Of a DNA stretch of 64,000 nucleotides, positions 32,701 through 55,775 are shown one piece after another. The notes below the pieces were generated by a model. It had not been told where the DNA came from and ran no database searches. It worked only from the letters and a program-made list of their open reading frames with translations. The DNA is from Psammoneis japonica (taxonomy: Eukaryota), in NCBI GenBank assembly GCA_008632985.1, contig QPGO01000001.1:776404-840403 (forward strand), written 5' to 3'. Made by a program: the position numbers and the translations under genes. The stretch's first letter is position 1; every line of letters begins with the position of its first letter.

Positions 32701-33449
32701 AAGTTGTCTTCGTTGGCGCAAACTTGAGCGGAGTGGCAACAGGTGGAAGCAGAAAAGTCGGGGGAAGATGAGGAGAGGCGTGGCGCATGGGAGCAGGCTT
32801 CGTGGTGGAGTTGGCGAATGCAGCCACGGCGGAAGAGGGACAAGCGGGAGGTGATGGCAGGGCCAAACTTGGAGCGTGGCGGGACAGGAGCAAGAATGAG
32901 AGCTTCAAAGAGTAAGAGCAGCTTCCAGAAGGGAGCAGAGTCACGTTGCCACGTAGGAATGAGGTGGGAGGGGTCAGAGAGAGGCTGGGAGGCGGCCAGT
33001 GCCCAGCTTGTCACATGATGAAGAGCAGAGCAGAGTTCCTTACGGGCGGAGGACGAGAGCTTGCTGCGACAGGAAGCTCGGAAAGGCGGAGGCTCGAGTG
33101 CAAGAGTGTGGAGCCATTGTAGCGAGGGGCCCCAGTCACCTAGATTGTGGAAGGACGAGAGAACAATGTCAGTGTCAAGGGAAGAGCGAGGAGCGAAGTG
33201 CTTGTTCTGCAAGTGATTGCGAAGGTGGGTGGTAGACAGGCAGGTGCATTGGCTGTGATTGCAATGCCTGCAGACATGTAAACCAGCGGCATCGAAGAAG
33301 GACGTAGGTACATGAGAAAGCGAGAGGCGGGGATGCTCCTGGCGAAGATGGCTACGTGTGGAAGCAGGAAGGGATGATGCATCAATGGAAGGAGGGGACC
33401 AGGAGCAGAAGGGGCAAGTTAGCGAGGCACGGGCTTCGGTGGGTTCCAC
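29718..33449 (-). CDS. ORF2: zinc fingers + reverse transcriptase + CCHC/RLE endonuclease
   Basis: RT motifs LRPIGVGTALRR, QFGIGVKGG, LDLVNMFN, QGCPLGP, YIDD, FLGQPLG and GGFGL. C-terminal CPCG..D.YGDHAFSC, RPADV and VDVTV. N-terminal CPFC..H..EH and CRHC..H..KH fingers. Confidence 0.93.
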   Translation of the reverse strand: MEPTEARASLTCPFCSWSPPSIDASSLPASTRSHLRQEHPRLSLSHVPTSFFDAAGLHVCRHCNHSQCTCLSTTHLRNHLQNKHFAPRSSLDTDIVLSSFHNLGDWGPSLQWLHTLALEPPPFRASCRSKLSSSARKELCSALHHVTSWALAASQPLSDPSHLIPTWQRDSAPFWKLLLLFEALILAPVPPRSKFGPAITSRLSLFRRGCIRQLHHEACSHAPRLSSSSPDFSASTCCHSAQVCANEDNFHSACSKLTSALPVAAVTPERLPAILKLYPPRLHPSDPPDPPSTRSASSLHNEPIELSSDALLSALSKCKPGTAAGVFADSTDLFKSCALYSTKTPTGVAQRPHLSSFRELVLLLLHGSIPSSVHSLFASNHFVALHKDASDLNKLRPIGVGTALRRIASSVVMTLFGSAFAECLLPDGQFGIGVKGGLDYLIHSALANIERCLSSADSAKALLLLDLVNMFNEASRDACRHVLTSTPAFHPLLPFFDLLCQSSNACWCRRPDSSWGSFLQEEGFAQGCPLGPVFASPVLSLVLRPINQELQERIPGRSSVSVGSYIDDAHAFLPHSVLPWFLERFSALGAPCGISLNLRKTKILTSIAGISPIPALPPSCADSLRAALSFLNPASDPSCNPELTSGVRFLGQPLGSHDFATSFLSDTSSALSDKVDMLLTRLHDKQTQAQLFKHCFVPSSAHLLGADFCYNFDPDNPPDPFLWTSLFQDFLLTVAHRFLHYVTSFAAPFPDHSIAIAFLPASSGGFGLRDPTAAAIPSFLVSLLRSFRFASHGVSLPSGASVSLPRCFRLSLSSWSNPRSSLRLCALFRRHAPVLASASTLSSSSLAALVKSATLPGLARRLYHEHQQQAVTSILANSSYDVQSSLPSLLSPLTSLPLHSFSRRFPSSRLSSDACAVAALRKLRLPILPPSLVNTPCPCGHAILDAYGDHAFSCRRAHKSKLSNGLRDTVFILAQTLGPLAEFCRSPNDVHLEPTNLLPTRPLLRPADVGISIPPPASLSAPSRHHYIAVDVTVPQASSRPPPGLPAPSSPILTEAHHSSARLKFLGPSTSSADGSLVVSSLDNNGIFPLPFTVDHLGGLGCFAHRLLFGSTSPSVCSQPKPPWSSSSDLRHSDASYSAFLYALSSPSAILPSADSAWRRLSADRFGNTYRTATPSQWATQTLGYNVVLHLSTHILRFTSSLPAPSSPIPSTKRPSSCVHRPFYSTVSTATSVPPSAVAFRST

Positions 33450-35098
33450 GAGGCGATGAGATCGCGGAGGGAGTCGACATCAGGGGCTGCAGCCCGGATG
33501 GCTTCTTCGTAGAAGGGTTGCCAGGTAGAAAGGCGGGCCGGGCAGCAAGCACCTACGAAGGCATCAAGGACATCCAAGAGTTCCATCTCGCGCTGGGACT
33601 GTTGGGGAGAAACCGAGTCATCAGATTCGGTCTGCACAATTGCATCGGGAGCGGTGGGGGGCGGAGAAGTCTGCAAAACTACAGCAGGAATGGCGGGGGG
33701 CGGAGAGAGAGCATCGGGAGAAGAGTGGGGACGTTTGGAGGGAGGAGGCTCGGTGGTGAGGGAGCGGGCTTGGGGAGGATGGGAGGAAGGAGATGCAGTA
33801 GCAGGGAGCGGATCTTGGGGCTTGGGGAGCTGCCAGTCTTGAGCAAGCAGCTCAAGGGCATGACACGAGAAAGAATCTCGAGAGGGAGCGGGCGGCTGAA
33901 GAGCAGCAGAGGCATAGGATGGGGAAGTCACACTGTGGTCATGAGTAGATTCCGCCACAGAGGTGAGGAGATCCAAGGGAAAGCCGGGATAGTTGTGTGG
34001 GTTGGCATCCACAAGGGCAATTGTGCACGGAGACGGGAAAAAGAGCAGCTTGTACTTGATTGGGAGGGAGTCATGAGCAGAGAAGATGGGGATGAGGGAG
34101 CGAAGATTGGTTGTAGCAAGGAGACGACTGATGCCAGGTTGGGTGAGAGGAAGAAGAAGACGGTCAGAGATAACCACTTTCATGTTGCTCTGACGCAAAA
34201 TGAGCTTGGAGAGGGCGCCACAGGTGGAAGCAAAGTTGGCCGGGGCTGGGAAGGGAATGATGGTGGCAGAGGTCCCCAGGATGGAGAAGGAGGCAGGCGG
34301 CGCATTAGATGGATTAGTGACATGAAGCAGGGTGTTCCAGACGGCATCGGAGGCAGTGGAAATGTAAAAAACCGGAAGAGAGCGGCGTCGCGCCTGGGCC
34401 GAGTTAGCAGGGTGTTGCGAAGGACGAATTCCAACGAGATTAAGAAAGGCAGGACAGTCTCGGAAGGATTGGAGGATGGGATTGGTCGCAGTGCTGGAGA
34501 TCTTGCCAACAAGGAAGGAACAAAGGCGGGATAGAGGAAACTCAGAAGTGCGTCGAGAAGAACCGTAGAGGGTTGAAGAGGGGCCAGCAAGGATGCCATG
34601 AGCCTTTTCTTTGAAAGAGTTGCAGGCCGGGATCATAAAGGCACAGTGCCGAGCCCAAGGATTGTCCACAGCCGAAACCGGAGAGAAGTCAGGGTGGAGA
34701 AAATTGGAAGGGGAGCCAGCGGAGCGGAAGGGGGTTAAGTGCAACGTAGGGTGTAGATGCCATTTCTGCAGGAGAAAGGAGAGCGCTTGGCTGCGGAAGG
34801 ATTCGAAGGAAAAGGTGGTGCCATCGGGGGTCACCGGGTGAAGAGCAACGTGAAAGTAGGACGCCCACTGATTCTGGTGAGGATGGGAGCGCTTCTTGGT
34901 TTCGGCAAGCGTCACAGAGCCAAGAGTGAGGAGGAGCGGAGAGACGCGCCGACTGTGATGCTCTAGCGTCTTAAGAATGATGTCGCGAATGACATCAGAC
35001 ATGAGAGCAATGGCAGGCACGTCAGGCAGGTCAGCAGGATGAAGGACCTGAGCTAAAAGCTTGACATCAGCGGGAGGAGCGGAGGCGAGAGCAGACAT
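33419..35098 (-). CDS. ORF1 of the non-LTR element (unknown function)
   Basis: Open from MSALASAPP (35098) to the stop at 33419, overlapping the ORF2 start by 31 nt, with the same strand composition bias as ORF2. Confidence 0.7.
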   Translation of the reverse strand: MSALASAPPADVKLLAQVLHPADLPDVPAIALMSDVIRDIILKTLEHHSRRVSPLLLTLGSVTLAETKKRSHPHQNQWASYFHVALHPVTPDGTTFSFESFRSQALSFLLQKWHLHPTLHLTPFRSAGSPSNFLHPDFSPVSAVDNPWARHCAFMIPACNSFKEKAHGILAGPSSTLYGSSRRTSEFPLSRLCSFLVGKISSTATNPILQSFRDCPAFLNLVGIRPSQHPANSAQARRRSLPVFYISTASDAVWNTLLHVTNPSNAPPASFSILGTSATIIPFPAPANFASTCGALSKLILRQSNMKVVISDRLLLPLTQPGISRLLATTNLRSLIPIFSAHDSLPIKYKLLFFPSPCTIALVDANPHNYPGFPLDLLTSVAESTHDHSVTSPSYASAALQPPAPSRDSFSCHALELLAQDWQLPKPQDPLPATASPSSHPPQARSLTTEPPPSKRPHSSPDALSPPPAIPAVVLQTSPPPTAPDAIVQTESDDSVSPQQSQREMELLDVLDAFVGACCPARLSTWQPFYEEAIRAAAPDVDSLRDLIASWNPPKPVPR

Positions 35099-35949
35099 GA
35101 TCAAGCGAGAAGAGAAAGTTGCAGAGAGTCGTTGTTGTGTGCGGATCGCCAAAAACAGCGACAAGGTCACAGAACGTGTAGAAAGATAGGAGGAGGGAAG
35201 GTGAGGGCATGACGTGGGCAATCGTGCACGAACGATCGTAGAGGATGCATGGAAACACAGGGAGGAAGGCACAAGCAGAAGCGCGAAGGGAGTCATGGAA
35301 GAGAAAGGGGCAGCAGAGAGGGCCGAAGGGCAGAGGAAGCTGTAGAGGAGCACGGAAGCAATCGTGTTCGAAGGGGCGTAGAAAGGCATGTGGAACGACA
35401 GGAGAGGAGTCACAACTAAAGGCGCAAAGGGAGTCATGGGAGGAAGGGGGGCAATTGAAGGGGTTGCTGGAGGAGGAAATGGGGAAGAGGTCAGGGGGGC
35501 AGAGAGGGGCCACAGGGAAAAGAAACGAACAAGGCAGAGAAGGAGAGGGGGCACAAGGAAGAGCAGAAAGGGAAATGGCAGGGGGCAGTTGTTGGGGTGA
35601 AGAAAGGGAGTGAAGAAAAGTGGAAGGGCAATGGAGTGAGCAGTTGGAAGGGCAATTGGCAATCGTGGAAACTGGGGGCCAGTAGAAGGGGCGTAGAAAT
35701 GTACAGGCGAAAGGAGCGAAGGGAGTGACCAAAAGGGAATGAAGAAAGGAGACGATGGCAAAGGCAAGAACGGCAGGGAAAAGGATCCGCAAAAAGAAGG
35801 ATGGCCATGGCGGAGGGTCGGGAGGCCACTTCGGGAGGTGCAGCAAAGAGCCACTGCATCCATCATGGGACGCCATCGCCACACGAATTGCCATTGTTTC
35901 AGTCTCATTCAACGAGAACGCCATCTACACATGCTGTGCAAGCACTTGC

Positions 35950-38600
35950 ACTTTGTTTTGCAATGGAGCTTCTCCCATTTTCTGATGTTGCTCTTTGCAA
36001 TCGGATGGACGGACGGATGGGAGGATCCTCGTCAGAACGTTAAAGCACAATGCCCTAACATGCAATCCAGGAAGTGAGTCGATTGTGTGAAATGTCAGCC
36101 CCGCAGTCCTTTCCAACCCACAAAAGTTGCTGCACCATTCCCTTGGACACAAAACTGCCCCATCCAACACAATTTGCAATGGCCTTTGCACTGTCACTCC
36201 TCCAATTGATCGGTGTGCCATCCGCCATCCGGCACACGCAATGACTCCTCTGCTGTGCCAGCGCACCCGGCGCCACAAGCACCAACAAAAACCCTGGCCA
36301 TCCAGCACTTGCCCCTCAAGCACACTGCTGGTGTTGATGCCCAACTCACCCTGAGGTTACAACTGCCCAGCCATCAATGTTGCCATGATCCCAAAACCAC
36401 ACATCCCCTCCTCCCAGCTCCTCGCTTGGTGCCTGGCCAGCATGCTCGGGGTGGTGGCGGGGCTTTTGTGATGCACTTGGCTGCAGCAGAGGCCCACAGG
36501 TGAGGCGCAAGCTCTGCAACAAAATTGTCAGGCAATGAACAAACCAGTCATCACTGACAGAAAAAGGGGCCATTTTGCAAATGTCCCTCCTTGTCCATTC
36601 TTGAAGCAGCTGCACTCCAAAGAGACACCAAACACCAAAGAGCACACCTGGCCAATTTTCATCTTCAGAAATGGCTGCCATGCATGTGACAAAACAAAAC
36701 ACATGATGCAACAGCCTGGTGGTGTGAGCTGCCACCTGGAGCTGGAGCTCATCACCTGCCCGACACACTCCAGGAGCACCAGATGATGACACACAAAATG
36801 ACAATTTCGTTGATTTTCATGTCAATTGTGTTTGCTTGAGATGTCATCCTGTGGTGAATCTAGACTTTGGCAAATGTTTTGAGGTGCACACCAATGTCTC
36901 TAAATGTCAGCCCAGATTGTCAGCGACATCTCAAAATGACAAACCAACAGCACACTCTGCAGCAGAGAGATCTCTCAACAGCGCACACAAACAAATTGCA
37001 CAACAATGGAGAGAGAATTGGTGGCCATTGTGGAGATGTTGAAAGCATTTTGATTGATTTTCCTTGGAGGAGGCTAACATGCAAAGAACATGACCCCAGC
37101 CCAGTTGCTGATGCACTCAGCCACCTCTGGCTGGCACCTGGCTTGCCATTTGAGTGCATTCCAGACATTGCTGTGATGTCAGATGGTTGTCCACCACATG
37201 GGGCCTTTAACATGGATGTTGCAGAGACGCTGTCACTCCCTGTTGGCTTCAAGCATGTTCAGATGGAGCAGCAAAAGGACAAGCACCTGCTGCTGTTGCA
37301 GGAGAAGGGCTCACACCTGACTGCTCCATCCATGTGTTCCATGGGGGCAAGTTGTCATGGCAGTCGATGCGCCATCTGGACAACATGTGTGTGCCCCAGT
37401 CATTGCAGATCCCTCTGACTGAGTGGCAACATGAGCAGCTGTGTCATCCAGGTGAGACACACACTGAAGTGTCAACAGCCCAGAGCACTTCTGTTGGCCT
37501 GGCATGAGGTCTGTGGCACACACTGTGTGGTTGAGTGCAATCAGCGGCAGAAGCCAAAACACAGGACACACAGCATCATGGCAAGCTGCCAGAAAAGGCA
37601 ATTGAGACAATCCCTCAAAGAAACCTGTGTGCAGACGCACTCTGTTTGGTGTGTTTTCTGGCAAGTTTTCTTGCTCCAGTTTCTTTGCCATCTTTGTGAG
37701 GACACTGTCCCACATTGCTTGTGTGAGTCAATGACAGACAAAGAGCAAGTCTGGCTGTGACACCCTTGCCACATTCCTCACCATGTTGCAGCACAAACCC
37801 AGCATTTTCTGGGCAGGGCAGACATTTTTCTTTCCATTGCAAGTGGGCTTGTTCCAAGGAACAGATGTCTGCAGCTGCTTTTGCACAGGTGGCTGATGGG
37901 GAATGCAACCACGGCCGGAAACCCTGCTGCCAAACCTCTGCTCTCCTCCCCCCACCATCACACAGGTGCTGGGGCATGGAAGAAAGACACTGACAAGGAG
38001 TGCCATTGTGGCGTGGGGCAAGCAAATCCTCAAAAATGTTGAGTGGCAAGGCCAAGAGGCCACAACAACTGCACCACAAACTTGGTCGCTTGTTTGATGG
38101 TGAAAACAAACACATGTCCAATGACGAAATTCTCGCACTGCAGAGCTTGCACGCGGAATTTTGCTGTGGGTCCCATGTCACACGGAGTCCCACCCAGGGC
38201 TGGAATGTGTCAGGAGACCTTGGGCCTCTTTGCAGTGCACTGGTCAGATGCTTTGGTGCATGCAGCATGTCTCAAGAACCAACTTTGGCACTCAACAATT
38301 GACACAACCCTCCGCCAAGCTTGGGCGGGTGACATTCTGGATCTTTCTCATCTCAGGGCTTTTGGTTCTCATGTTGATGCTTGCTGCCCTGGCAACCTGC
38401 TGCCAAGCTTGATCACCATTTGTTCAACCGCGTGTGTTCCTCAATGCACTGCAGCAGATCACAACATCTGCTGCATTGACACTCAGACATGGGAGGCTGA
38501 GAGAAAACAGCGACAAGTGCAACGTTCAATGAAGCACACTTCAATCAAGCTGTTCAACCCCCAGCCAGGCCCCAAATGCTGTTTGACCTTGGCATGAAGC
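35950..38600 (+). mobile_element. Degenerate Ty1/Copia retrotransposon fragments (gag/protease-integrase region)
   Basis: HWSDALVHAACLKNQLWHSTIDTTLRQAWAGDILDLSHLRAFGSHV at about 38230-38380 is the Copia integrase C-terminal signature. The segment 37655-38000 is repeated at about 41578-41905. The left boundary is uncertain. Confidence 0.7.
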
Positions 38601-38663
38601 AAGTTGCACCCCAAGGCTCCAAACACAACCTGGCTCTCTCAATCTCTTCCTGACCAAGCCTCC

Positions 38664-38922
38664 GGCCATTCCAGCTCCAGGTGCTCCGCGCGGGTTCGAT
38701 TCCCATCATTTGGCAATTTGTGCATTTGGCGCAATCAACTTTTTCCAAATCCGTTTTTTGCCAAATCGAAGGGCAAGTGTGCACTTCACATGCATTTTCG
38801 GGTGCACACTCACCTTTCGATTTTCAAAACGATCAAAATTGAAGGAGTTAATTGCGCCAAACTGTGCAGAAAATCGGCCTCTCTCGTGATGAAAAGCAGA
38901 TCACCTGGAGCTGGAACAGGCC
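38664..38922. mobile_element. MITE (copy 2 of the family at 14309-14631)
   Basis: Termini GGCC-ATTCCAGCTCCAGGTG and CACCTGGAGCTGGAACAGGCC. The fold-back interior is homologous to copy 1. Confidence 0.8.
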
Positions 38923-40254
38923 CTCCCTGGTCCAGTGCACTTTGATGTCCACAGCTTGGTGAAATGTCTTTTTTGCAAATGAGGACAAACTTGCCACTGC
39001 TGCTTCACCCCTTGCTCCAAAGGATCTGCGTCGTCAGATTTCATCGCCATTGCTGCAATTTCCATTGACGGCTTGTGTGGTCACTGCTTTGATGTGCCCC
39101 TTCCCTGCCATGGCACCCAGAAGCCTCATTTTGGATTCAAGCTTGGCTGCAATTTAGGCTGAGGCCACCTGCATTTCTGCCACTGTCATCTCGGGTGTGG
39201 CGCTGCTCAGAGATCCCCTGCTGTTGCTCTGAGCTGTGCCGTGCTTGTCTCACATCTGTCGGTCAACACTCTCACCCCATCACCAGCAAAAATTCCTTGA
39301 AGCTGCCAGATCAATGCCATGGCCACCCTGACTGTCCAGAAGCAATGCTGCGGCTTGTCCATGACTGCCTCTCTCCATCCCTTGACTCCACGGGCCTTCC
39401 ACAGCTGTCCCTTGTCAATTGACCAGATTGACCATAACAGACAGCTTGCCTCACTCAAGGACCCATGTGTCCCCATGACACACAAGCTAGATTCCTGGCC
39501 TGAATGGGAGAACAAGGCATGTTTGACCCTCCTGCTCCTCCGCCACCTGGCGCTGCTGTTTTCAATTGGGCGTGGCAGCGTCTCATCAAGAATGATTTGG
39601 GCCACACCAAGAAAGCTCTTGCACACTGTTTCTCTGTCCTTTCTTTAATTGGTGCACCTTGTGTCGAGATGCTGAGCTTCAGCACACACACACGGCCCCT
39701 CTGCACAGAGCCTTGTTGTGGCCCCATCGGACGATGCTGCAGCTGCAGCTCTGAAGCACCAACAATCAAGGCGACGACTTTCGTGCATGTCAGAAAGCCA
39801 TTGGCGAGCTGATGTGGGCCATGGTGACCATCCGTGTTGACCCAAGAAGTTTCTCTGTTGCAAAGCTGAGTCGGTTCAGCTCAAATCCCAGCGAGGCACT
39901 GAGCTTCCTCTTCATGCCAAGAGGAAATGTCCGGCAGGACCTGCACCGTGGTTTCACGAAAGGCGACGTCATCAGAGACTAAAAGCACACATCATCATGA
40001 TTGAGAAAGAACACACCACAACTGATGGCAATAATAACGCGTTTTGACGAACATAGCAAGTGCCGCTCCCGGCAAAAAAGTTTTGGTGGCGAAGAGCGAC
40101 AAAGGAAGGGGATATTCATAGCCCGACTCCATAGCATTGTTGGATATAGAGAGATCTTGTTGCTTTGGCCCCAACTTTTTTCTTCTTTTTAAAAATTTGC
40201 AAGCTTTGGGGTTCGAAAAAGAAACAAGCGCTTAATTGGCGACCATACGGTATT

Positions 40255-41394
40255 ATGATGCAACAAGACGTGAAAAAGGCCATAACAAACGCCATTGGTG
40301 ATGGAGTGAATTCCATTGTGGAATGCGTCGATGTGGACGGCATCATTCGTCGAATTGAAATCAATCAACTCTTGGAACGCGTCGACTTTAATGCCGTATT
40401 GGACGGCATTGACTTTGATCGTCACCTGGAACGCGTCGATCTGAATCGAGCGATGGCACGAGTAGATGTGGATGCCATTGTTCAGAGACTGGATGTTCCA
40501 GCCATTGTTGGTAAATCAGACATTGGAAGTATCATGGTTCAGTCAACGACTGGTGTGTTTACACATGTATTGGATTCACTTCGAACGCAAGTAGTTGTCA
40601 TTGACTTGACGATTCTCAGAATCAAGCAATTCAAACGATGGAGTGAGACAAAGGGTGCCCTTCCACTTGCGCCAGGAGATCCGAGTGAATTAGAGTACGA
40701 TGCGTGTCCAGAGGAACGGTCGGAAAAGGCTGTTGCGGTCCAAGGTCGCTATGCTGGACTCTTTTCGAGGACTCTTGCTCTATTCGTCGATAGCGGCATT
40801 CTGATTGTTAGCTATGCATGTGCCATTCTCATTGTACAACTCTACTGGATGCTATTTGTTGGCGATGTGAGTGCACAAGAGTTTCGTGCCAAGGTCAATA
40901 AAGAGAATGTCTGGGCGATTGTCAATCGAGAGTACGCATGGGCTTTCTTGCTTTACACCATCTATTGGTTTCTTTACAATTTTGTTAGCACCATCTTGAC
41001 TGGTCGTTCGTTAGGAATGGGTTTGGCCGGAATCAAAGTCATTGATAGTAAGACTGGTCAAGAGGTTTCGGGAACGCAAGCCTTGTTGCGAACAATGATC
41101 ATGCCATTTAGTTTGACATTCGTTCCTATTCTCAATCTTATTGGTGTTGTGAGGAGAGACGAACGAATGCTGCATGACATTGTGACTGATACAGGCTGTG
41201 TGTATAGATGGAATGCTCGCATGGCAGGTCTACGTGAAAAGGCAGAACGAGCCGAAGAGGAAGCGGAGGTTCGCCGTCGACATTTGGAACGAGCGCATCG
41301 GGCCTCTCTTCGCTTATCAATCAGCGGTGAGGAGCAACAAATCGAAACTCGCCTCTCCGAAGACTCAAAAGCAGCAGGGAAGAAAGACCACTAA
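40255..41394 (+). CDS. RDD-domain membrane protein with N-terminal (V/I)D.(N/D)A(I/V) heptad-like repeats
   Basis: YAGLFSRTLALFVD, GRSLGMGLAGIKVI, ALLR and R..RMLHD are RDD family motifs. The ORF is intact and intronless. The start may lie further upstream. Confidence 0.85.
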   Translation: MMQQDVKKAITNAIGDGVNSIVECVDVDGIIRRIEINQLLERVDFNAVLDGIDFDRHLERVDLNRAMARVDVDAIVQRLDVPAIVGKSDIGSIMVQSTTGVFTHVLDSLRTQVVVIDLTILRIKQFKRWSETKGALPLAPGDPSELEYDACPEERSEKAVAVQGRYAGLFSRTLALFVDSGILIVSYACAILIVQLYWMLFVGDVSAQEFRAKVNKENVWAIVNREYAWAFLLYTIYWFLYNFVSTILTGRSLGMGLAGIKVIDSKTGQEVSGTQALLRTMIMPFSLTFVPILNLIGVVRRDERMLHDIVTDTGCVYRWNARMAGLREKAERAEEEAEVRRRHLERAHRASLRLSISGEEQQIETRLSEDSKAAGKKDH

Positions 41395-41574
41395 TGTCAT
41401 AGTGGCAGCATGTTAAGTAACAGTTTATAGTGTTGATTGTCTATGCACCACATGCTTGAGATTTAGGCGATCATCGCTGGCGCCGATCGCATGAACGAAC
41501 TTCGTCAATGACAGTCGGTTCGAGATCGACATAGCACGCGGGACATGCTTTCAAAAGGTGTTAAGGGCATCATC

Positions 41575-43700
41575 GCATTTTCTGGCAAGTTTTCTTGCTC
41601 CAGTTTCTTTGCCATCTTTGTGACACTGTCCCATGCAGCTTGTGTGAGTCAATCACAGAGGAAGTAAAAGTCTGATCATGCCACCTAAGCCACGTTGCAA
41701 ACCCAGCATTTTCTGGGCAGGAAGGCTGCTTTTTCCATTCTCAGTGGGCTTGGTCCAAGGAGCAAATGTCCACAGCTTTTGCACAGGTGGTTGACAGGGA
41801 ACACCACTGTGACTCCTGGTCCCACTGCCAAACCTCTGCCCCCCCCCCCCCCCCNAGCCATCCATCACACAGACACTGGTGCATGGATGAAAGACAATGA
41901 CAAGGAGCGATGTTGCCACAAGAATTGCCAGGTGAACATTTGTCACACTGCACCCAAGTGCTGCAAAAATGCAACGGAGCTCAGGGACATGGACACCTGT
42001 CTCACTTTGTTGATTTCCATTGTGCCTGAAAGTTTGGCAACAGATGTGACACATCCACGACTGCTCCAGCCATGTGCAAGTCATCCGTGCAAGACCAACA
42101 ATCCTGACACATGTCATCATGGGGTGAGGTGGTGCAATCTTCCATTTGCAAGAAATGGTTGAAGGTGGCCAAGGTTGAGATTGCCACTCTTGCATGTTGA
42201 GGAATGTGGTGGGTCACAGTGCCCACATCCAATGTTCAAACCAAGATCCTTCCTGGTGCTTGGGCATTTCACCACAAGCAGACGCCAAGTGTCAGCAGAC
42301 AAGCATGGGAGCACTCCAATGATGGAAAGGTGGCTTCAATCCTCTTGCGTGGGTTCCCCATCCACATTTCTGCCCAGTGCTTGAGATGCCACGGGTGGCA
42401 AGTTTGGCTTGCAGCCTGCAACTCCAGCAGCAGCAAAAATCTTTTGAGTCAACCTTCTCTGAGACAACTCAACAATGGTGCCACCATCATCTTGCCACCC
42501 GTTTCAAACTTGACACCCAAAAACTTGGTCAAACTGCCCTCTTTTGTCAATTCAAATCCTTTCTCACACACTCAGGACAACACTTGATCAATGGTGGACT
42601 TGTGTGCTGCACTGATGCCACAATTGTTGACGCACAGATGCATGATGCAATCCGTGTAGATCAGGAGGCATTGACCACACTTGCTCTGGATGAATCCCAA
42701 GTCCAAAAAGGCTTGTGGGCAGTGTTTGCATCACAACTTTGGAGCCAAAGAGAGTCCACAGAGACTCTTGACAAGCTTGCTTGAAACAAGTTTTGGGTCC
42801 TCCAGGCAGTGGACCTAAAACCACATGGAAGATGAGTCCAAACCGGCTCTTGCTTGGGAAGCACCATTTGCACAAATGCAGGCTGAAAATCTGCCAACAC
42901 AGTGTGCCAGCCAAGGACAAAACTCAATGTCAAGAACACCCAAGCAGCGCTCCAAGCAAAAACTGGAGCACAGGTGTCAAATGGACTCTCCCTTCCTGCA
43001 GATTGCCTCAACAGCAGCACCAGGTCTTTTGTTTGTTGACCTCGCCTGATCCTGACATCTTCTTTGCTGTCCATCAGTTTGTAAGCTTTGACTCCAACCT
43101 GAAGCAGTTGCGCGCCACTGCCATCAAGACCCTTGTCTCTGACACCTCAAAAGAACACACAATCAGGAATGCTGCCATCCCCAACTGGTTGCTTGGATTT
43201 TGACTTGTGGGTTGATGCATGATTTGCTGGTCTCTGTTGCCGCAAACTGGGCTCTGATCCAAGTTTGGTCAGGTCTTGCACAGGACACCTGCTGATCACT
43301 TTCAACAGGCATCCTTTGACATGGAAGTTGCAGCACCAGTTGCGTGCTCCACCCTCAAAGCCAAGTGTCAAGCCACCTCCCATGCCCTTTGAACACCTCT
43401 GCCTGCTCTTTGAAGAATGTGCTCCTTGAGATCATCTCCACTGTGGACATCTCCCAAGATCTCAGAACATCTGTTTGTCTGCACACGTTTGAAGACAACC
43501 AAGGTGCTTGCTGCCTGGCTGCACAAACTGTGTCAAGCATTGTCTCTTGTCAAGCTGCACTGGCTCTGGCCACACTGCAATGAGCTTGATGCATTCAAGG
43601 TGCAGACAGCTGACCAACTCATTGATTTTCTCACAAAGCCTTTGACTTGAGAACTCTTCCAGAACAACAACTGGTTGAAGGTCCAAGGGTGGTGGTCTGT
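41575..43700 (+). mobile_element. Degenerate Ty1/Copia remnant (RT-RNase H)
   Basis: PDIFFAVHQF...ATAIK, TFEDNQGA..LA and TADQLIDFLTKPL match Copia RT/RNase H motifs. Many stops and strong TpA/CpG depletion. Confidence 0.85.
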
Positions 43701-44309
43701 TGGAAACATGTTGTGGCTTTGTCAAGATGCAGGAGGTTTGCTCTGAACTTGTGCAAATTGTGCGAGTGTTCTCATTTGCAATTTCCAGGTGTTGGTTGCT
43801 GAAATCTGTAAATGAGAGGGTGAGTCATGGGTCATCTGTCCACTGACCCAATCTTCCATTTGTGTCTGTCATTCCACCCATCATCGAACTCTGATTGAAG
43901 CTCTTTTTACACCATGTCAACACCTCAAATTTCAAGCTTGTTGCTGTGTGAGCACCACAGGCAGTCTGCAGATGTTGGAACAACCATGGATCACTTCAGC
44001 AGCACTTGGTTGGTTGATTGTCGCAAAGATGTTTGTTGCTGAAACTTGCGCCACAAGTCTCTGATGGTGCAAGTGCGCATGGAAGAATCTCAGTTTGATG
44101 CACTCAGCAGATTCAGTCTGGGCAGCTTGCAATCAGGTCACCAGGGGTTTTGTGAAGACTGTTGACTGAACTCTTGTTGCTGTGCGTCAGCGAGAATGAC
44201 CTCCCCGCTTGTTGTGTTCTGACCTGTCTGGGGCTTTGGACTGTTGGAGTGGACATTCAGCCAGTGCATTGGGAAGACACTCAGAGCTTTGCTGTTGTGC
44301 AAGCTTTGA

Positions 44310-44675
44310 CTCTGTGCAAGCCAACAATGTAGCAACTGCATGTGCCACAATGCTTGCTTTGAAACATGACCTTTTGGATGCTTTGTGTGTTCCCCAGCTT
44401 TGCCTGCAAGGAGGGCATTCTTTTGGCTGGACTTCTTGAGGACACACACGCAGCACCAAAACCAAACAGCACCAGCGGCAACCCCACCTTGACAAGCAAT
44501 TGAGCTGAAGTTGGCACACTTTTCTCAGATGAAGAACTTGGGTTTCTGCAACCCAGCTGTGACAGCACAGACCAGGCTCTTCTCAATGCACGATTCAGCC
44601 ACAGGCACTCGTCATTGTTGCAACAACTTGAAACCAATGACAATGAAGTCAACTGTTGTTGATGGCAGATGCTGC
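44310..44675 (-). pseudogene. Hypermutated partial duplicate of COX16 (upstream region, exon 1, part of intron)
   Basis: Aligns to about 29348-29690. The intron donor GTAAG has become GCAAG, and nearly all TA and most CG sites are converted to TG/CA. Confidence 0.93.
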
Positions 44676-44711
44676 AGTGCTCTCTCTCTCTCTCGAACGA
44701 ATGATAAAATT

Positions 44712-44713
<2 letters not shown>

Positions 44714-44769
<56 letters not shown>
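44714..44769. repeat. (CT)n microsatellite
   Basis: Pure CT run at the edge of a mutated block, followed by CTACTCTACTCTAAGAGAG. Confidence 0.97.
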
Positions 44770-44772
<3 letters not shown>

Positions 44773-45332
44773 CTACTCTAAGAGAGCAGCAGAGTGTTGT
44801 TGTTGCTTCGCATCTCAAATCTCAATCTGGAATCAGAGCGCGCTTCGCGCTTAGTCAGAAACTTAAAGCACATCACCCTAATATGTAACCAATGATGTGT
44901 GTCGGTTGTGAAATAACGTATGCATGACCGAATAAGATATAATTTCCCTTGCTCTTTTTGCGTCGTCTCGGCGTCCGGTTTTGATATGCCACGTAGGCGT
45001 CACATAAAGAAAGAACAAAAACATCAACTTCTTCAACGTTGCAGAATACTTTTATTTTTATTCGCGATTGTATGTCAATTTCAACAAAGAACATCTGCGT
45101 ATGTCATTGAAAGGGCTTGTTTTGGTACGAAACGTCGTATGTATGTTTCGTACACAAATCTTACGTGGATGTTGACACCCACCGTAGAGACACGTGAAAA
45201 ATGTACCAGAACGGCCGAGTGTCATTCGAATCTGTGATACTCAGTACAAAACTCTGTAGAAGCTACGGAACAGAATTGTTGTTCAAGATCCCACACTGAA
45301 CACAAACAACCAAAACGCAACCAGAGTTCCCC

Positions 45333-48780: not shown

Positions 48781-49992
48781 TCACTTCCTTGCGGGGCTGC
48801 ACTTGATGCAATAGTGCTCCTCGCCTTCGTTGCAAAATTTTGAATCAGGTGCGCACTCTTCGCAGTACCCCACACCGCAAGCCCGGCACCTGTCATCACA
48901 ACACTCTTCACAACAGAAACTATCACAGCCCCCACAAAAGGTGAATGGGCATTCGTCACAAACATTGCTTTGACAGTGTTCACATTCCCCCATAATGTAC
49001 ATGCAATCTTCGCAAAATCCTCTTTTGCAAATGTAACAATACCTTATGCCACAGTAGCGGCGATCATTACATGCTTCACAAAGTGCTTCATCACAGCCTT
49101 CACAAGAGTACAACATATACTGGTACCCGTGGCATAATGGTTGTTCGCAATCCGCACAAAGAAATGTGTATCTGCATTTTTCACAGTGTTTTCCCATGCA
49201 ATCACAGCACCAATTCGCCCCTTTACTACAAACGCCGCAATGAAGTTCCTTGCAATCACTGCAAAAAGACATCGGTCCCCGCCGCTCAAAGTCGTCTTCG
49301 TCAATAGTATCAACGATTGCTCGGTGACAACGATCACACGCAGTTCGCTGCTTTCTCATGATCTCCGCAGTGGCGCTTTGAAGCCTTTCATAAAAGTCAT
49401 CAATCGGGTGGTCGTACGAAGAGAGCAAGTTCTTGTTTTCATGCTGCCTTCGAAACTTGACAACTTTCAGTCCAACAGCCACACCCGGATAAGGCGTTAG
49501 GTTGGTGTTGATTGGGGGCATGCTCTTTAGCACCGCAATCACAAAGGAGTTGTCAAGACCTGTTCGGCCACACCTTTCCCTCTCCTTCCAGTTCCGTCGA
49601 AGATTAATCTCTTCCAGGCGACGCGAGTACATCAGAGCTGCGAGTCCACGGCCTCCAACCGAGGTACAGCCCATGAGGGAGAGGGACCTTGTGACCTTTT
49701 GAGCTTCTACATTTTGTAGCAAGGTAAAGAGATCGGCATCAGTGATTTTACTCGCATTTTGTACATCATAAAAATAAATCTCGGCCCATGCACTGGGGCA
49801 CTCTCGGTACACAAAGTGTCTCAGCCAAGACGAACACGCCGCAAGTCGCACTTTCGATTCAAGGTCGAGGAACGATACAACCATACGTGAAACCACCGTT
49901 GGAAGCAGACGAAGCGCGCAACGTTCCGCCTCCATCATCATTGGTTGTACAGCACCATGTGGGGGGCTCGCGTCGACAACGACATCCGCCAT
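48781..49992 (-). CDS. F-box-like protein with LRR-like segment and C-terminal CxxC-repeat region
   Basis: LLPTVVSRMVVSFLDLESKVRLAACSSWLR F-box pattern, ITDADL..LL and LSLMGCTSV. More than 10 CxxC pairs at the C-terminus. Intact 403-aa ORF. Confidence 0.82.
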   Translation of the reverse strand: MADVVVDASPPHGAVQPMMMEAERCALRLLPTVVSRMVVSFLDLESKVRLAACSSWLRHFVYRECPSAWAEIYFYDVQNASKITDADLFTLLQNVEAQKVTRSLSLMGCTSVGGRGLAALMYSRRLEEINLRRNWKERERCGRTGLDNSFVIAVLKSMPPINTNLTPYPGVAVGLKVVKFRRQHENKNLLSSYDHPIDDFYERLQSATAEIMRKQRTACDRCHRAIVDTIDEDDFERRGPMSFCSDCKELHCGVCSKGANWCCDCMGKHCEKCRYTFLCADCEQPLCHGYQYMLYSCEGCDEALCEACNDRRYCGIRYCYICKRGFCEDCMYIMGECEHCQSNVCDECPFTFCGGCDSFCCEECCDDRCRACGVGYCEECAPDSKFCNEGEEHYCIKCSPARK

Positions 49993-50399
49993 GGTTGCGG
50001 CACTCGAGTGTTGAATGTCAGCCGTCGTTGTGGCTGTAGGCCCCTATGCAAGCTTATGTGCTGAACGACGAATCTTTCACGCGCACGTTCGCGCCGTATT
50101 TCACGTACAAAGACACGGTGTGACTTTTGGCGCGAGGGAATGGTCCTCCCGTCGTCCACTTCAGGAACACAACTGGAAAAGTTTGTCACGGTGGCAAAGT
50201 TTGTTGGGTGTTAAGGGGTGGAGAAAGCCAACACATCTGTCATTGCCTTTCAGAGGCTTTGGCACATGCCTCTGGCTGTGAACACTCACAACCATGGCAA
50301 AATGTGCTGGGGCAGGTCTGCAGCTGATCTCCGACACACACTCGTTTCTTTTTTTCTGGCTCTCCCACACCACAAACCTTTCTCACAAATCTCGCCAGA

Positions 50400-51900
50400 T
50401 CAAAGGGTGCCAAATTGACACTGGAGCATTTGCCAGTTAAAACCTGCTCTTCCATGACTTGTCCACATGCAGTCCTCACCCATGCTGTCAGGAATTTCAT
50501 GGCTCACCGACTCATCTGCTCTTTGTGGCATCATCTCGACCCCCGTGTGGAGGATCACAAACACATTTCCAATGCTGCCAGCACCACCATTTGCCAGGTG
50601 CAGAAACTAAAAAGTGAGAGCAAGACTCAACATTCATTGGGAGTTGTCAACACAAATTTACCACATCCTCAACAGACATCAGCATGTCGTCCACTGCAAT
50701 GCTGTCTGCCCGCCCTCTCTGAAAGCCACATCGCACCCTGACACTCCAAATTCCAACACGTTCTCCTTTGCACAAACTGTCAATTAACTGGCCTTGTCTG
50801 TGCTGATCTAAGGAGGATGACAGTTCTTGGAAACCATGCCATCCAGTGCCACATGTTGGCTGTTCCATCAACTCCCATGGCTCACTTCATCTGCCTCTGC
50901 CGAAGAATGATTGCTGCCACCTCCATTCAGCAAAGGACAATCCTTCTTCACATGCCCAATCTTGCCACATTTCCAGCACTTGATCTGATTTTTCTCATTT
51001 TGTGCAAATCTTGCATCCTCAGGTTTCTTGTTGGCCCCGCACATGTCCAGCACCTGCAGCACCTCCTTGGCCAAATCAGGATGATGGTCAACCCCCAGTG
51101 CAAACTGCCGGTGAAGGTCCTTCAAGATGTGCCAATGTTCTTTAGCATCACCAACAACAACCCATTGTTTCTCATTTTCTTCGAGGTGTCATCAGCATCC
51201 ATGCTGAGCCCATGATCTTCTTTCTCAATGGTTTCTTCTGGGATGACCCTGCTGCAGGTCCCTTCCACCACCTCAACAACACTTGTGAGACAACCACTTT
51301 GAAGCACCTGTCCTTCATCTCTTGATGAACAAGCGCCAACTGCTTCCAAGCTTTGGCAGCCTGGACATGTGAGCAGATTCTCCCAGCTGCATTGAACAAG
51401 ATCAACTTGAGAATTTTCAATGATGCCACCATGCCCCACTCTGTTGCAACCTTGGTGAACTCCATCACTCCTTTCACCTTGTGACGTGCAGCCTCCTTCA
51501 TGCACTGTTTCACAATTGTGTCAAATGTCTTTGCCCTTTGCATCTTGTAGATTGCATCCTGTTGCATGCAGTGATCACATTGTTTTCCCCAGATTGACTT
51601 GTTCTCTTCTCCAGTGGGGCTCACCCAATGGACACTCCAGCTCCTCTGATGGTTTGTTCTCCTGCTCCAGAGACAACAGTGCCCACAACTCCAGACCAAA
51701 CATTCTTCCAACATGCTCAACTGTTTTCCTTGTGATTTCCATGCAACCATCTGCCTGTGAAGCTGACTTGACAATGGTGTTGTGCACCCACTCCTTCAAA
51801 TCTTTCATGCTTTCACACCACTCAGCTGCACCCTTGCCCATGTGTTTCTCCTGGCCCAACACAACTTCACACCACACCCTCTTTCAGCAGACCCTTGCAG
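50400..51900 (-). mobile_element. Degenerate LTR-retrotransposon gag region
   Basis: CCHC knuckle IKCWKCGKIGHVKKDCP near 50930-50985 within a TpA-depleted block. Boundaries are approximate. Confidence 0.7.
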
Positions 51901-53237
51901 CTGCTTCACAGCAAGGTCCTTCAGAGATTGTTTCTTCACCTTTCTTGATTGGCACCACTTCTTTGAGTGTCATGCCATGCCTGCAAATGCTGCTTGTGGG
52001 GTGCTCATGTTGACTGCCAGTGCAACATCTGCCATGGTTGCTTTGCGTGAGTGTCAAATGTCAGCCATTGTTGTGTCTGCAGTGTTGATGACATGGCATG
52101 GGCACTTTCAAGGTGGACCATGTGCACACACCAAGAATTTGTGAGACTGTCAGGATGCAAACCTCACAAACTCTGCAGCGCAAATCTGCATGTGAGCCTG
52201 TTCTGTTGCCATGCATGGTGCAAACACTGTTAAAATTTGCACTGCATGTTGCAGGCAGGGCTTCTGCAAGACAAACTTGTCATTTGTGAATGCCCAGGTG
52301 CCATTGTCACAGACACACCCTTGAACACAAAATGTGACAGAGGGAGGAACAAGACAGACAGCATGAAATGTGATGGAGGAGGGATGGCAGATGGCACAAA
52401 ACATGCAGCAATGGCACACGCAGAAGTGTGCATGGTGCTGTGCATGCATTGCTTTTAGATTGTTCTGTTCTGCAAACATGAATGAATGAAAGCTGTGAAT
52501 TGATGTTCCAGCTCTCAGTTCTCAGCACTGCATGTCATGTGCAAAGGTGCTGCAAGGCCCTGCCAGAGGCCCCACCAGCAACCACTGGCAGCAGCAGCCA
52601 CAGCAGTTTGCTCATGCCCAAGAAGAGCCCAAGTTGCATCATTGCAGACACAAATGGCAGGGTGAAGAATGTCTGCCACTGCTCCCCTCAGAGGCAATCT
52701 AGATCACACAAGGTGATGACAAGCTCTGATTCACTGCTTAATTAAAATCCCATCATTGCTCTTTTTTTAGATCACACAAGGTGGCAACAAGCTTGCTCTC
52801 TGTGATGCATTGCTGCTCAATCAAGCCACTGCACTCCTCAGCAAAAAGCCATTTCCCTGCATGTTTTGCCTTGCCAGAAGACCAGTTGCACTGGGTTTTC
52901 TCACCCATGGTCATCTGTGGTGGCAAGCAATTGCATGTTTCTGGCACTGCCAGCTGACATGCAGCAACAGCAGCACACGTGGTGGAAATGGGCTTCTTGG
53001 TGATCGTGTGCACAATGAGACTTAGATTGTTCTGTTCTGCAGATGTGAACAAACTGAGTTCTTCTGCATGCAAATGACACGCATCTGCATTGAAAAGAAA
53101 GAAAAACAAGGTGACTGTTGTGCCAGTTACAAAAATGCAAGAGCAAGCAGTGGTTGAATGTTGAGTGCACCAAGTTGCAATGGAAATTGAAAATGTGGCA
53201 GAGGAGCAATTACAGACCTCCCAAGCTGGGAGTGGTG

Positions 53238-55775
53238 TGGACGCAACCCGGATGCTGAATTGCTGTGACCCTCCGGAGCCAGATTTTTTTTTGCCACAAC
53301 AAAACCACGGCCTCTAACAACTTCCTCTTTTGACACCACCACTGTTCAACAAGATGTTGTTTCTCCCTGACACAGCTTGCATGCTTGACAACAGAAATTG
53401 GGAGCCTCATGTTGAGTGAGTCATGTCCTTTGTTTTGGGCTTTCCACGGGCTCAGGAAGCATTGGCGTCAACCTGTTTTTTTTTCTCTTCAGCTCCTGTT
53501 GCAGTTCAGCACATCACGCCCCACTTGAAGACATGTGTCTCCGTTGCCGTCAACAGCAGTCCATCACACCACTGGCACATCCATTGTCATTCACACTCCT
53601 CTGCCTCTGGTGGTGATGATGGATGAATCATTCACAGCATCACCCAAGCGCAAGCAAGATCCTCAGAGGAACCATTGCAATGGCATCTGACTGCACCCGT
53701 GCATCTGCCATGACAAAGAGGAATGCAAACAAAGTGTGGAGGACTTTGTTGATGCTGCTGATCAAAAGAGGTGCTGTTGTCATCACCTTCCTTGTGCCAG
53801 CAAGAGGAGGCCGCATGGAAGTGACAATGTGAAGAGCAACAGCATGACAGAGGTGTCCTGCCGTCACCTTTTTGGGAACTCTTGCACACCACCTAAATCT
53901 CCCGGCAACTGCAAATGCGTTGGTTTCAACCATTTCCATCCTTCCATTTTAAAGGATGACAATGGGGGTCCTTTGGAGAAAGTGGATTCTGAGACAGTGG
54001 ATGACAACACATTGAGATTGTCAGGTTGCAACGTTGGGATCAATTTGGCATCGTGACAGCAACAGCTGGTTTCCAAGAGTGGCACAGAAGTGGATGCCTT
54101 GCCTGGGACAAGTTGGGCTCTGCATGTCAATGCTTGATTTGGACTTGATGCTGGATTGCATGCCGGCAGATGTTGCATCATGTGACAACATGCCTCATTC
54201 TAGCACCAGCAGGGATCCACCTCAATGCACCTCACACATCTTGGTGACCGTGCCTGGAAAGTTCAGAGACAAGGGGCATGAAAAAATGCAGCAATTGTTG
54301 ATGGCAAAATGTTCATGATGGACACTGTTTGAGTCTGCACTGCTGTTGATTGCTTGCTGTGCAGCAACAAGACTGATTCTAGCAGCGGCTTTTAACAACG
54401 TGGTCCGTTCTGACCAGTTTGGCATTTGAGCACACAGGTCTCTGCTTTGGATGGTGCCCTGAGAACAGATTGACAGAGTTGTGGGGAACGGTTGACACTG
54501 ACCAAATTTTGTTTGCAAACAAGCCACACTGGTGCTGGTCAAAGATGAAGCAAGCGCACACAACATAAGTTGCGAGCGGCAGTCAGCCAGACTCTTTTCC
54601 CTCTGCAATTTTTTGTGGATCCACCACTTTCTTCTTTGCTCTGTCATCCCTGGCCATTTCTTTTCTCTTTTGAGTGGCTGTTTGTTTCTTTTCTTCAAAT
54701 TTTTCAAAGTGAGATTTGTCAGCCAGATGCAGATTTGGATCCGGGGCATGGCACGGGGCATGGAGATTGGCACCCCCTTGCGAGCAGTTGATGGCATGAT
54801 GCAGATGCGGGAAATGACCACTGGGCATGACATCTCGAACATGCGCATCATCAATTGCTCGCGTGAAGACACCTTCGCTCAACCAATGAAGCAACTTTAG
54901 CTTGAACACATGGGATTTTTTCTTGTTTGAAGACTTTTTTGATTGGCAGCATGATGTCACCTCTTGGACAAACGATGCTTTGCCACCTGTTGAGTGCCTC
55001 ACGTCTGTCTTGTTCTGGCCGGTTCTGCTGAAGAAGAAACAGCATCCTTTCTTCAATGGGCCCTTTTCTGGCTCTGCACTTTGCATCAGTTTGCCATTTG
55101 AGCAGATTGTGTGTGCCATCAAAGATGCACACAGCTTCAACGCCGTTGCGTTTGCACAGCCTGTTGTGATGCTGTGCCAGCAGTTTTGCAGCTTGGCCAA
55201 CAGGTGTCTTTGGCGATGCATGCACTTGCCTTGTTGCAGCTGTTGGGTCAATGAGGATCTTGTGAAGTGGAGTTGACATGTCAATTGCAACCGTTTCTCC
55301 TCTGAGTTCCGACAAATTGTTCTTGGGGTTGTCATCCACCATGTCGAACTCGGGCCTGTGCACAATGTCAAGGCAGAGGCTGCAGATGGTCACACTGCTG
55401 CAGCGCAGGCAGAAAGGAGAAAGGACAGAGTTGACAGATGCACCAGTGGTGATGGGCTGCTGTCAATGGCAACAGAGACGCACGTCTTCGAGTGGGGCGT
55501 GATGGGCCGAGCTGCAATGGCAGCAGAAGAGCGAAAAAATGGGTTGGAGTCGATGCTTCCCGGGGAAAGTGCACAATGAAGGACATGACTTGCCCAACAC
55601 AAGGCTCTCAGTTTCTATTTTTAAGAGCGCAAGTGGTGTCAGGGAGAGACAGCGTCTTGTTGAACGGTGGTAACATAAAAGAGGGTGTCGCCGAAGAGGC
55701 GTGGTTTTGTCGTGGAAAAAATTATGGCTCCGGAGGGGTCACAGCAATTCGGCCGCGCGAAACAGGTTGCGTCCA
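53238..55775. mobile_element. Putative DNA transposon with ~350-bp terminal inverted repeats, internally decayed
   Basis: 53238-about 53600 is the diverged reverse complement of about 55420-55775. Shared blocks include TGGACGCAACC, GAATTGCTGTGACCC, GTTCAACAAGA, CTCCCTGACAC and CATCACGCCCCACT. Confidence 0.85.
54895..55393 (-). pseudogene. Exo1/XPG/FEN1-family 5' nuclease N-terminal remnant inside the long-TIR element
   Basis: LSELRGETVAIDMS..LHK, NGVEAVCIFDG, K..TD.K.R and IPCVQA correspond to XPG-N/XPG-I motifs, truncated before the EAD motif. Confidence 0.75.

Follow-up and report, generated by a model that had tools for sequence, protein, structure and literature searches.

The question raised by a 64,000-nucleotide stretch of the Psammoneis japonica genome (GenBank assembly GCA_008632985.1, contig QPGO01000001.1, positions 776,404 to 840,403 of the forward strand; hereafter the window, numbered from its first letter) is what has removed the dinucleotide TpA from most of its length and left the genes in between with it. 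The TpA-erasing change is real and far above chance. Over the whole window the observed/expected ratio (O/E) was 0.29 for TpA, 1.52 for CpA and 1.45 for TpG. We consider it very probable that the cause is a heritable, locally targeted process that converts TpA to CpA or TpG (A:T to G:C) in inactive blocks and spares expressed genes together with their non-coding flanks.

A two-state model run on TpA positions delimited seven depleted blocks, totaling 41,996 of the 64,000 bp (66% of the window) with TpA O/E of 0.04–0.18, which alternated with six gene blocks with TpA O/E of 0.51–0.71. Block 1 (1–1923; TpA O/E 0.126, TpG 1.82, CpA 1.52, CpG 0.70) took in the 3′ end of a working FG-GAP gene. Block 2 (5765–8371) had 13 TpA (O/E 0.072), with CpG at 0.16, TpG at 1.72 and CpA at 1.93. 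The 13.4-kb block 3 (13930–27287; 56 TpA, O/E 0.066; CpG 0.51) contained a decayed copy of the FG-GAP gene, a decayed RecQ-like helicase and a weak DDE_Tnp_4 trace. Block 4 (30297–39979) was made up of a retroelement, partly depleted, to ~36000 and of strongly depleted DNA from 36001 to 39979. Block 5 (41563–44768; 9 TpA, O/E 0.043; CpG 0.18) held a decayed COX16-like copy, block 6 (50107–55615; 25 TpA, O/E 0.07; CpG 0.25) held an XPG_N fragment, and block 7 (58291–64000; 36 TpA, O/E 0.105; CpG 0.45) continued past the window end. When the window was divided into 1-kb bins, TpA O/E was ≤0.2 in 33 of 64 and ≤0.1 in 27 of 64. The longest TA-free run, 1,641 bp in block 4 (37209–38849), has a probability of 4e-31 at the gene-block TpA rate of 4.17%. 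An initial annotation of the window had stated that well over half of it had almost no TpA and that there was one in positions 1–900; the block total and the bin counts agreed with the former, and the latter was exact, the sole TpA being at 370.

The dinucleotides lost and gained were close to balance. For this comparison the depleted set comprised 36,291 bp, excluding the compositionally skewed retroelement (30297–36000), and the gene blocks 22,004 bp. TA fell from 4.17% in the gene blocks to 0.46% in depleted DNA and CG from 5.67% to 2.43% (0.43 of the gene-block level), and CA+TG rose from 14.90% to 21.52%, that is, a loss of 6.95 points of TA+CG against a gain of 6.62 points of CA+TG. The G+C content was nearly constant (47.8% in gene blocks versus 49.7% in depleted DNA) because the TpA loss and the CpG loss offset each other.

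The direction of the change was TpA to CpA/TpG, as three polarisations agreed: intact paralogues, conserved tyrosine (Tyr) columns of the decayed RecQ-like helicase, and relatives or the working FG-GAP gene. In four paralogue alignments, which are not fully independent in that the decayed stretch 16107–16341 enters two of them, none of the 41 TpA with ungapped flanks was kept and 32 were now CA or TG (CA 17, TG 15, GA 3, AA 2, TC 2, TT 1, CG 1).

The COX16-like pair illustrated the change within a short segment. The unmutated reference (29349–29690, minus strand; start codon at 29631, exon 1 end at 29399) matched Pfam COX16 over exon 1 with E = 0.011, below the cut-off. Its 108-nt intron (29291–29398) was delimited by contig ends of sequencing run X2 that joined 29290 to 29399/29400. 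TpA content was normal, with 16 in the 342 bp and seven in the intron. The decayed copy (44310–44674, minus strand), inside block 5, comprised exon 1 and 50 nt of the intron, and it is therefore a DNA-level duplicate and no retrocopy. The local alignment of the two segments had 270 of 339 positions identical and 29 gap columns. Of the 16 TpA in the intact segment, none was left in the decayed one (9 to CA, 6 to TG, 1 to TT); 13 of 15 CpG were lost too (9 to CA, 2 to TG), and the remaining dinucleotide types were retained at 43–80%. Counted by type, there were 18 A>G, 15 T>C, 11 G>A and 8 C>T transitions, and a further 17 substitutions were transversions. The examples that the initial annotation had quoted from this pair were present in our alignment, including GCTTAC to GCTTGC at the splice donor.

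The same changes had been claimed for the FG-GAP pair, and they were found there as well. The intact gene (1050–3299, minus strand) is a 749-codon open reading frame (ORF), and its decayed copy (15616–17779, minus strand) kept none of the aligned TpA and gave sub-threshold FG-GAP_2 matches. Two segments aligned: 1525–2284 with 15616–16385 (556 of 754 positions identical) and 3128–3272 with 17647–17779 (102 of 133). In the first of these 18 of 18 TpA were lost (6 to CA, 5 to TG, 7 other) along with 36 of 49 CpG. Together, the TpA and CpG losses in the two pairs supported the proposal of a directional TpA to TpG/CpA process beside ordinary CpG decay.

A further source of polarity was the decayed RecQ-like superfamily 2 helicase ORF in block 3 (23287–24675, minus strand, 463 codons), for which 41 homologues were found (best E 5e-43, at 38% identity). 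The three columns with Tyr in at least 60% of 40 homologues all read otherwise in the window: CAT (His), TGC (Cys) and CAC (His). Lowering the threshold to at least 50% gave four columns, reading His, His, Cys and Thr (3 of 4 His or Cys). Overall, Tyr made up 0.22% of this ORF versus 2.43% in the homologues, with His at 4.5 versus 2.7% and Cys at 4.1 versus 2.2%. Metagenome loci related to the gene had ordinary TpA (O/E 0.41–0.99 in 43 of 43, none depleted), although these were mostly intact genes chosen by protein pattern and tell little about other species. The statement that every transposable element remnant has Tyr turned into Cys or His was borne out for the one decayed gene that allowed the comparison and was not confirmed as worded; most depleted DNA had no recognisable transposable element domain. 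A PDB sequence search with the XPG_N fragment, made for a second Tyr test, gave no hits.

Transitions were concentrated inside TpA. Over the four paralogue alignments they were found at 16 of 42 A and 18 of 41 T within TpA (38–44%), against 34 of 349 other A and 30 of 307 other T (~10%), and at 28 of 291 non-CpG C and 14 of 238 non-CpG G. A>G was also less frequent at ApA (29 of 234) than at TpA. Transversions were level at 7–15%, and at the TpA bases they were the same as background (3 of 42 and 5 of 41). The initial annotation had named a lack of A-to-G enrichment after T, compared with other contexts, as the sign of general GC-biased conversion; the enrichment is there, and its view that the pattern is not such conversion was upheld.

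Residual TpA also depended on the flanking bases. Expressed as the depleted/gene-block ratio for each of ten flank classes, it was 0.01 for ATAC/GTAT, 0.04 for both GTAC and ATAT, 0.05 for ATAG, 0.06 for CTAC, 0.11 for GTAA, 0.115 for ATAA, 0.19 for CTAG, 0.33 for CTAA and 0.625 for TTAA. A T preceding TA, or equivalently an A following it, protects, and a preceding purine is worst; TAC and TAT were the contexts most depleted. A multiplicative per-strand model with four parameters fitted the ten classes with r = 0.95 in log space, the survival by base 5′ of the T being 0.15 for A, 0.15 for G, 0.41 for C and 0.78 for T. The strand predicted by this rule was the one changed in 11 of 12 T-flanked sites (p = 0.006), with xTAA giving CA seven times and TG never, and TTAy giving TG four times and CA once. 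From this pattern we infer that the target would be 5′-V-T-A (T>C), equivalently 5′-T-A-B (A>G).

In depleted DNA CA (3,629) and TG (3,518) were equally common, with a dispersion of 1.2 over 66 bins of 500 bp; being equal and without over-dispersion, they indicated that the two strands were hit alike. Strand-coordinated CA versus TG tracts, as from single events of a single-stranded DNA deaminase, were not seen at the 500-bp scale, at which saturation may have erased them. TpA is self-complementary, so the same event reads as A>G from one strand and as T>C from the other, and the sequence cannot tell which base was attacked. For this reason the description of the process as one acting on adenine was not supported.

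The working FG-GAP gene showed what happens at a block margin. TpA loss leaked ~750 bp into this gene, and selection retained its Tyr codons. Its last 250 codons (1050–1799), which adjoin block 1, had eight Tyr-codon TA and two synonymous-type TA (those at codon positions 2-3 and 3-1, removable without amino acid change) versus eight and 38, respectively, in the upstream 500 codons (Fisher p = 3e-4). Approximately 19 synonymous-type TA were expected, for which the Poisson P(≤2|19) is 1e-6. The retained Tyr-codon TA all sit in TAY, the most vulnerable context, and CpG was normal in the same stretch (48 versus 89 in the upstream 500 codons). The retention of Tyr TA together with the loss of synonymous TA fits a mutation pressure filtered by selection; a miscall cannot produce it.

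The other genes of the window keep abundant synonymous TpA, and the non-ORF DNA of the gene blocks (8,695 bp) had TpA O/E of 0.71 and CpG O/E of 0.99. Together, these data indicated that regions are spared by their location and not by selection alone. Block borders lay near ORF ends, block 5 beginning ~170 bp past the RDD ORF and block 6 beginning 64 bp beyond the ORF at 48781–50043. The proposed confinement to inactive-looking DNA was supported. Run X2, which was like spliced RNA at the COX16-like intron and is not on record as RNA, had no contigs on 22 of 30 bins, strongly depleted parts included, over the 20 kb compared, and we did not use this as evidence of silence. A third run, X3, gave no contigs there. 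The further proposal, that the process is like fungal repeat-induced point mutation (RIP) and acts on repeats and duplicates, was not supported. The intact paralogues are not mutated, though duplicated. The affected part of the FG-GAP gene tracks block 1 and not the duplication: the TpA-poor part is 1050–1799, and the duplicated segment is 1525–3272, of which 1800–2549 retains synonymous TpA. In addition, there were only 15 self-matches within the window, few repeats were shared among the depleted blocks, and several depleted blocks were spanned by single contigs of ordinary word depth from sequencing run X1.

TpA loss is separable from CpG decay, though the two are correlated (0.77 between TA and CG O/E across the 64 bins). 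Eight of the 33 strongly TpA-depleted bins retained CpG O/E of at least 0.6, and the bins at 22–24 kb had TpA O/E of 0.02–0.12 with CpG at 0.82–0.86. Ordinary CpG to TpG/CpA decay accompanies the TpA loss in most, not all, depleted blocks. The CpG decay was itself flank-dependent in the depleted blocks, with a ratio of 1.07 at CCGG (no loss), 0.64 at GCGC and 0.31–0.39 at A/T-flanked sites, and was strongest at ACGA/TCGT (0.31).

Several known systems share features with this pattern. Fungal RIP changes C to T at CpA, creates TpA and mutates all repeat copies. The likeness is that duplicated and mobile DNA is ruined by hypermutating transitions with a preferred dinucleotide, which leave a compositional scar. 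The differences are that TpA is here removed and CpA/TpG created (TA 4.17% to 0.46%), as the initial annotation had said in calling the change opposite to RIP, and that RIP mutates every copy whereas here the functional paralogues are intact. Deamination of 5-methylcytosine accounts for the CpG to TpG/CpA half (the two pairs together lost 49 of their 64 CpG). It cannot remove TpA, and the TpA loss is larger and is also found where CpG is intact (22–24 kb and 1050–1799). APOBEC3, AID and ADAR resemble the process in being enzymatic hypermutators, with a nearest-neighbor preference, that work against viruses and retroelements. However, the target of APOBEC and AID is C, and that of ADAR is RNA, with strand-asymmetric clusters as the outcome, whereas the changes here are at A:T pairs, in DNA-level duplicates and strand-symmetric.

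To our knowledge, a cellular system that hypermutates its own DNA at A:T pairs was first described in a 2026 preprint. That preprint, on the chlorarachniophyte Bigelowiella natans (Mettrop et al., 10.64898/2026.01.13.699255), reports 302 new nuclear single-nucleotide mutations in mutation-accumulation lines, of which 231 lay within two integrated viral regions; all but one of these 231 were A>G or T>C, all of them on TpA. It further reports 124 TpA-poor, CpA+TpG-rich clusters in the genome, of which 85 Mb were callable. The likeness to our window is close: there TpA alone was changed, by A>G or T>C, to TpG or CpA, and here 32 of 41 TpA turned into CA or TG with 0 of 41 kept; clustered 1-kb windows that are TpA-poor and CpA+TpG-rich, local and not genome-wide; and reverse transcriptase and DDE domains among the targets there, with RVT_1 and a weak DDE_Tnp_4 trace here. 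When both cluster thresholds of the preprint were applied to the window, 32 of its 64 bins passed, forming seven blocks of 1.9–13.4 kb. The initial annotation had known of no description of such a genome-defence system in diatoms; the signature has in fact been reported, in B. natans, and a diatom report was not found in the literature, the main text of the preprint being without diatoms, other species or the words "flanking" and "trinucleotide".

The two cases also differ, as far as the preprint's main text goes. The footprint here is far larger (66% of the window, against 124 clusters in 85 Mb callable), decayed host-type genes (FG-GAP, COX16-like, XPG_N) are hit where the targets in B. natans were viral or transposon DNA, and CpG decay goes along. 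That main text has neither the flank rule nor leakage into a functioning gene. In B. natans the local rate rose ~1000-fold de novo in some lines only, whereas our footprints are old and saturated. The larger footprint, the decayed host-gene copies among the targets, the flank rule and the leakage are thus what the window adds to the B. natans report, and it probably represents a second lineage with TpA-specific hypermutation, unrelated to B. natans. An origin from B. natans itself is unlikely: the RDD protein encoded in the window had no match above 81% identity among 5.8 billion proteins, the FG-GAP protein lay nearest to a protein-atlas cluster that is 95% eukaryotic and has Bacillariophyta as its commonest phylum (score 0.92), a single lead towards diatoms and no proof, and a genome with 124 such clusters would seldom carry seven of them within 64 kb. 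In the protein atlas the RDD protein matched bacterial RDD clusters only, which gave no help with taxonomy.

We propose that each strand would be attacked separately, at 5′-T-A-B-3′ (A>G) or, equivalently, 5′-V-T-A-3′ (T>C), by an enzyme that would be brought in by silent chromatin or an RNA guide and not by sequence repetition. Since no Tyr codon and neither the TAA nor the TAG stop would survive it, such a process may serve to disable DNA that is mobile, viral or duplicated. The natural substrate of ADAT2 and TadA, A34 of tRNA, always follows U33. By analogy, the likeliest enzyme, which we put forward tentatively, may be an ADAT2/TadA-like adenine deaminase, from the lineage of the tRNA-A34 deaminases, that acts on DNA. 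Members of this lineage act on A after U or T; the resemblance is one of specificity only. An ADAT2 homologue is also the candidate named by the B. natans authors, who proposed a natural DNA activity for it (10.64898/2026.01.13.699255). In addition, the engineered TadA variant ABE8e A48E is reported to prefer a YAC context (PMC13109818), which matches both TAY as the worst context and AAC as the top secondary site here. We speculate, with rather less confidence still, that TpA-directed DNA editing could be an old and widespread genome defence of algae in the stramenopile, alveolate and rhizarian (SAR) clade, in Rhizaria and stramenopiles at least, in which a chromatin- or RNA-guided, T-A-B-specific adenine deaminase derived from a tRNA-A34 deaminase would have rewritten most non-genic DNA here and be creeping into gene ends. 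If this speculation is correct, TpA editing would shape codon usage and gene decay besides silencing invaders.

A number of points weigh against the reading of a targeted, TpA-specific process with a flank rule. Its specificity is not absolute, as A>G was mildly raised outside TpA, most at AAC (14 of 67), and nine of the 41 paralogue TpA had outcomes other than simple transitions. The paralogue pairs are old, with transversions at 7–15% of sites, and therefore display saturation and not rate. The gene blocks served as a proxy for the ancestral TpA of the depleted blocks, which may bias the flank-specific survival, and differences between run X1 and the window at T-flanked TpA, whose polarity is not known, followed the flank rule in one of three. 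The read check with X1 is not fully independent, given the library type and the sample origin, and the trigger and the enzyme we both infer from sequence.

We compared the window with contigs of run X1, which is one sample, its library type not on record, and may be the assembly's own. Contigs of 587–1,824 bp with a word depth of 28–36 matched five depleted stretches (35860–37683, 38894–40314, 41839–42761, 42870–44175 and 44153–44700, the last covering the decayed COX16-like copy) with no other letters and no gaps. This identity argues against a base-calling artefact, in which a modified base at heterochromatic TpA would be miscalled by a long-read platform and TA would really be present. The initial annotation had raised that caveat itself, and the unrecorded library and single sample of X1 leave it some room, but we regard it as very improbable. 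In one and the same 750-bp stretch Tyr-codon TA was retained and synonymous TA lost; strand-mixed miscalls should often yield TA to CG, which was seen once in 41; and in B. natans the same signature is seen among new mutations in Illumina-sequenced lines (10.64898/2026.01.13.699255). X1 repeat copies moreover differed from the window, and repeat copies from one another, at exactly TA/CA/TG/CG sites, with at least five adjacent double differences of CA and TG among the 40 of 373 rows covered. Nor do we believe that the pattern came about with no special process, through GC-biased gene conversion, selection against TpA or the arrival of foreign DNA that was already TpA-poor, an account to which we give hardly any weight. 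It is true that TpA is mildly under-represented in most genomes and stands at O/E 0.51–0.71 in the gene blocks here. However, G+C differs little (49.7% versus 47.8%) and A/T sites outside TpA were not driven to G/C, contrary to what biased conversion would give; selection does not act on pseudogenes; and, set against their paralogues, the decayed host-gene copies have lost TpA, as has the RecQ-like gene set against relatives with normal TpA.

Among explanations that accept a mutagenic process, the one we take most seriously after an adenine deaminase, while thinking it improbable, is an attack on thymine. 5-Formyluracil mispairs with G, and the 5-hydroxymethyluracil (5hmU) of dinoflagellates is reportedly enriched at TpA and TpC; a literature search for 5hmU at TpA in dinoflagellates found no paper. 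A dioxygenase of the TET/JBP type that oxidises the T of V-T-A to 5-hydroxymethyl- or 5-formyluracil, pairing with G, would give T>C, and by the self-complementarity of TpA all our results read equally as T>C at V-T-A. Nothing points to such a base in this organism, and the AAC secondary hotspot and the YAC preference of ABE8e A48E (PMC13109818) sit better with a deaminase. Error-prone repair of the Pol-eta type (WA>WG), acting where 5-methylcytosine deamination has left T:G mismatches that open repair patches, was a candidate of the initial annotation that fared poorly. It would account for CpG decay going with TpA loss in most blocks (r = 0.77, 64 bins), but a 5′ A was no hotspot like a 5′ T (ApA 29 of 234 versus TpA 16 of 42), the outcomes were transitions with transversions not in excess, CpG O/E was at least 0.6 in eight of 33 strongly TpA-depleted bins, and the 3′ end of the FG-GAP gene lost TpA with CpG normal; we therefore hold it to be most unlikely. 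There is scarcely any likelihood, in our judgment, of ADAR-like editing of double-stranded transposable element RNA that was then fixed by reverse transcription, even though ADAR favors a U before the edited A (10.64898/2026.01.13.699255) and a reverse-transcriptase element is present in the window. The COX16-like copy holds intron sequence and is a DNA-level duplicate, the changes occupy contiguous blocks of mixed content and are strand-symmetric, and a resident gene is affected at its end.

If a targeted TpA editor is indeed at work, it matters beyond this locus. The B. natans report is limited to a single chlorarachniophyte and two viral inserts; with the same footprint in a second, unrelated algal lineage, the process would count as a major force in the evolution of protist genomes, and probably an ancient one. 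The flank rule would be an enzymatic fingerprint that can be checked against the B. natans mutations and against candidate deaminases or oxygenases, and a natural TpA-specific A>G editor of double-stranded DNA would interest base-editing research. For annotation, blocks without Tyr codons and without two of the three stops give long false ORFs that can mislead gene prediction, and in them decayed genes and transposons escape annotation.

The content of the depleted blocks is mixed, with mobile elements, decayed host-gene copies and much that is unrecognisable. Depleted DNA had 128 stop-to-stop ORFs of at least 110 codons, many in overlapping frames; as TAA and TAG are nearly gone, long chance ORFs are to be expected there. 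The ORFs of depleted blocks had 0.29% Tyr, 4.3% His and 5.0% Cys versus 2.4%, 2.9% and 3.0%, respectively, in gene-block ORFs. A Pfam scan of 113 depleted-block ORFs of at least 110 codons found no transposable element family above the cut-off and no viral hallmark among them, and no deaminase domain turned up in general Pfam scans of the window ORFs. What the scan did identify, above the cut-off (E 2.3e-7), was the XPG_N fragment of block 6 (54854–55462, minus strand), the N-terminal nuclease domain of XPG/FEN1 type, which represents a decayed host-type gene copy. The other Pfam traces were FG-GAP fragments and the weak DDE_Tnp_4 match. The RecQ-like gene of block 3 may be element-borne.

The retroelement (29691 to ~36000, minus strand; RVT_1 E 1.1e-9) was only partly depleted, with TA O/E of 0.35, and CTAC made up 42 of its 96 remaining TpA. 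Its sense strand was strongly skewed (A 14.7%, C 39.1%, G 16.8%, T 29.4%), and stops were so rare on it that several long ORFs overlap. Editing confined to one strand during retrotransposition could have left this skew as a scar. Word depth in X1 was 500–5,000 over the element, which we did not take as copy number, and many loose contig ends lay at 29689–29695. Many X1 and X2 contigs diverge at these same positions, and the homology between the two COX16-like segments stops exactly there, at the start of the retroelement and ~60 bp upstream of the start codon. A (CT)32 microsatellite (44714–44779) lies exactly at the border of block 5 and the next gene block. In a block with normal TpA, the gene at 8952–11211 consists of tandem units of ~555 bp that are 73–80% identical.

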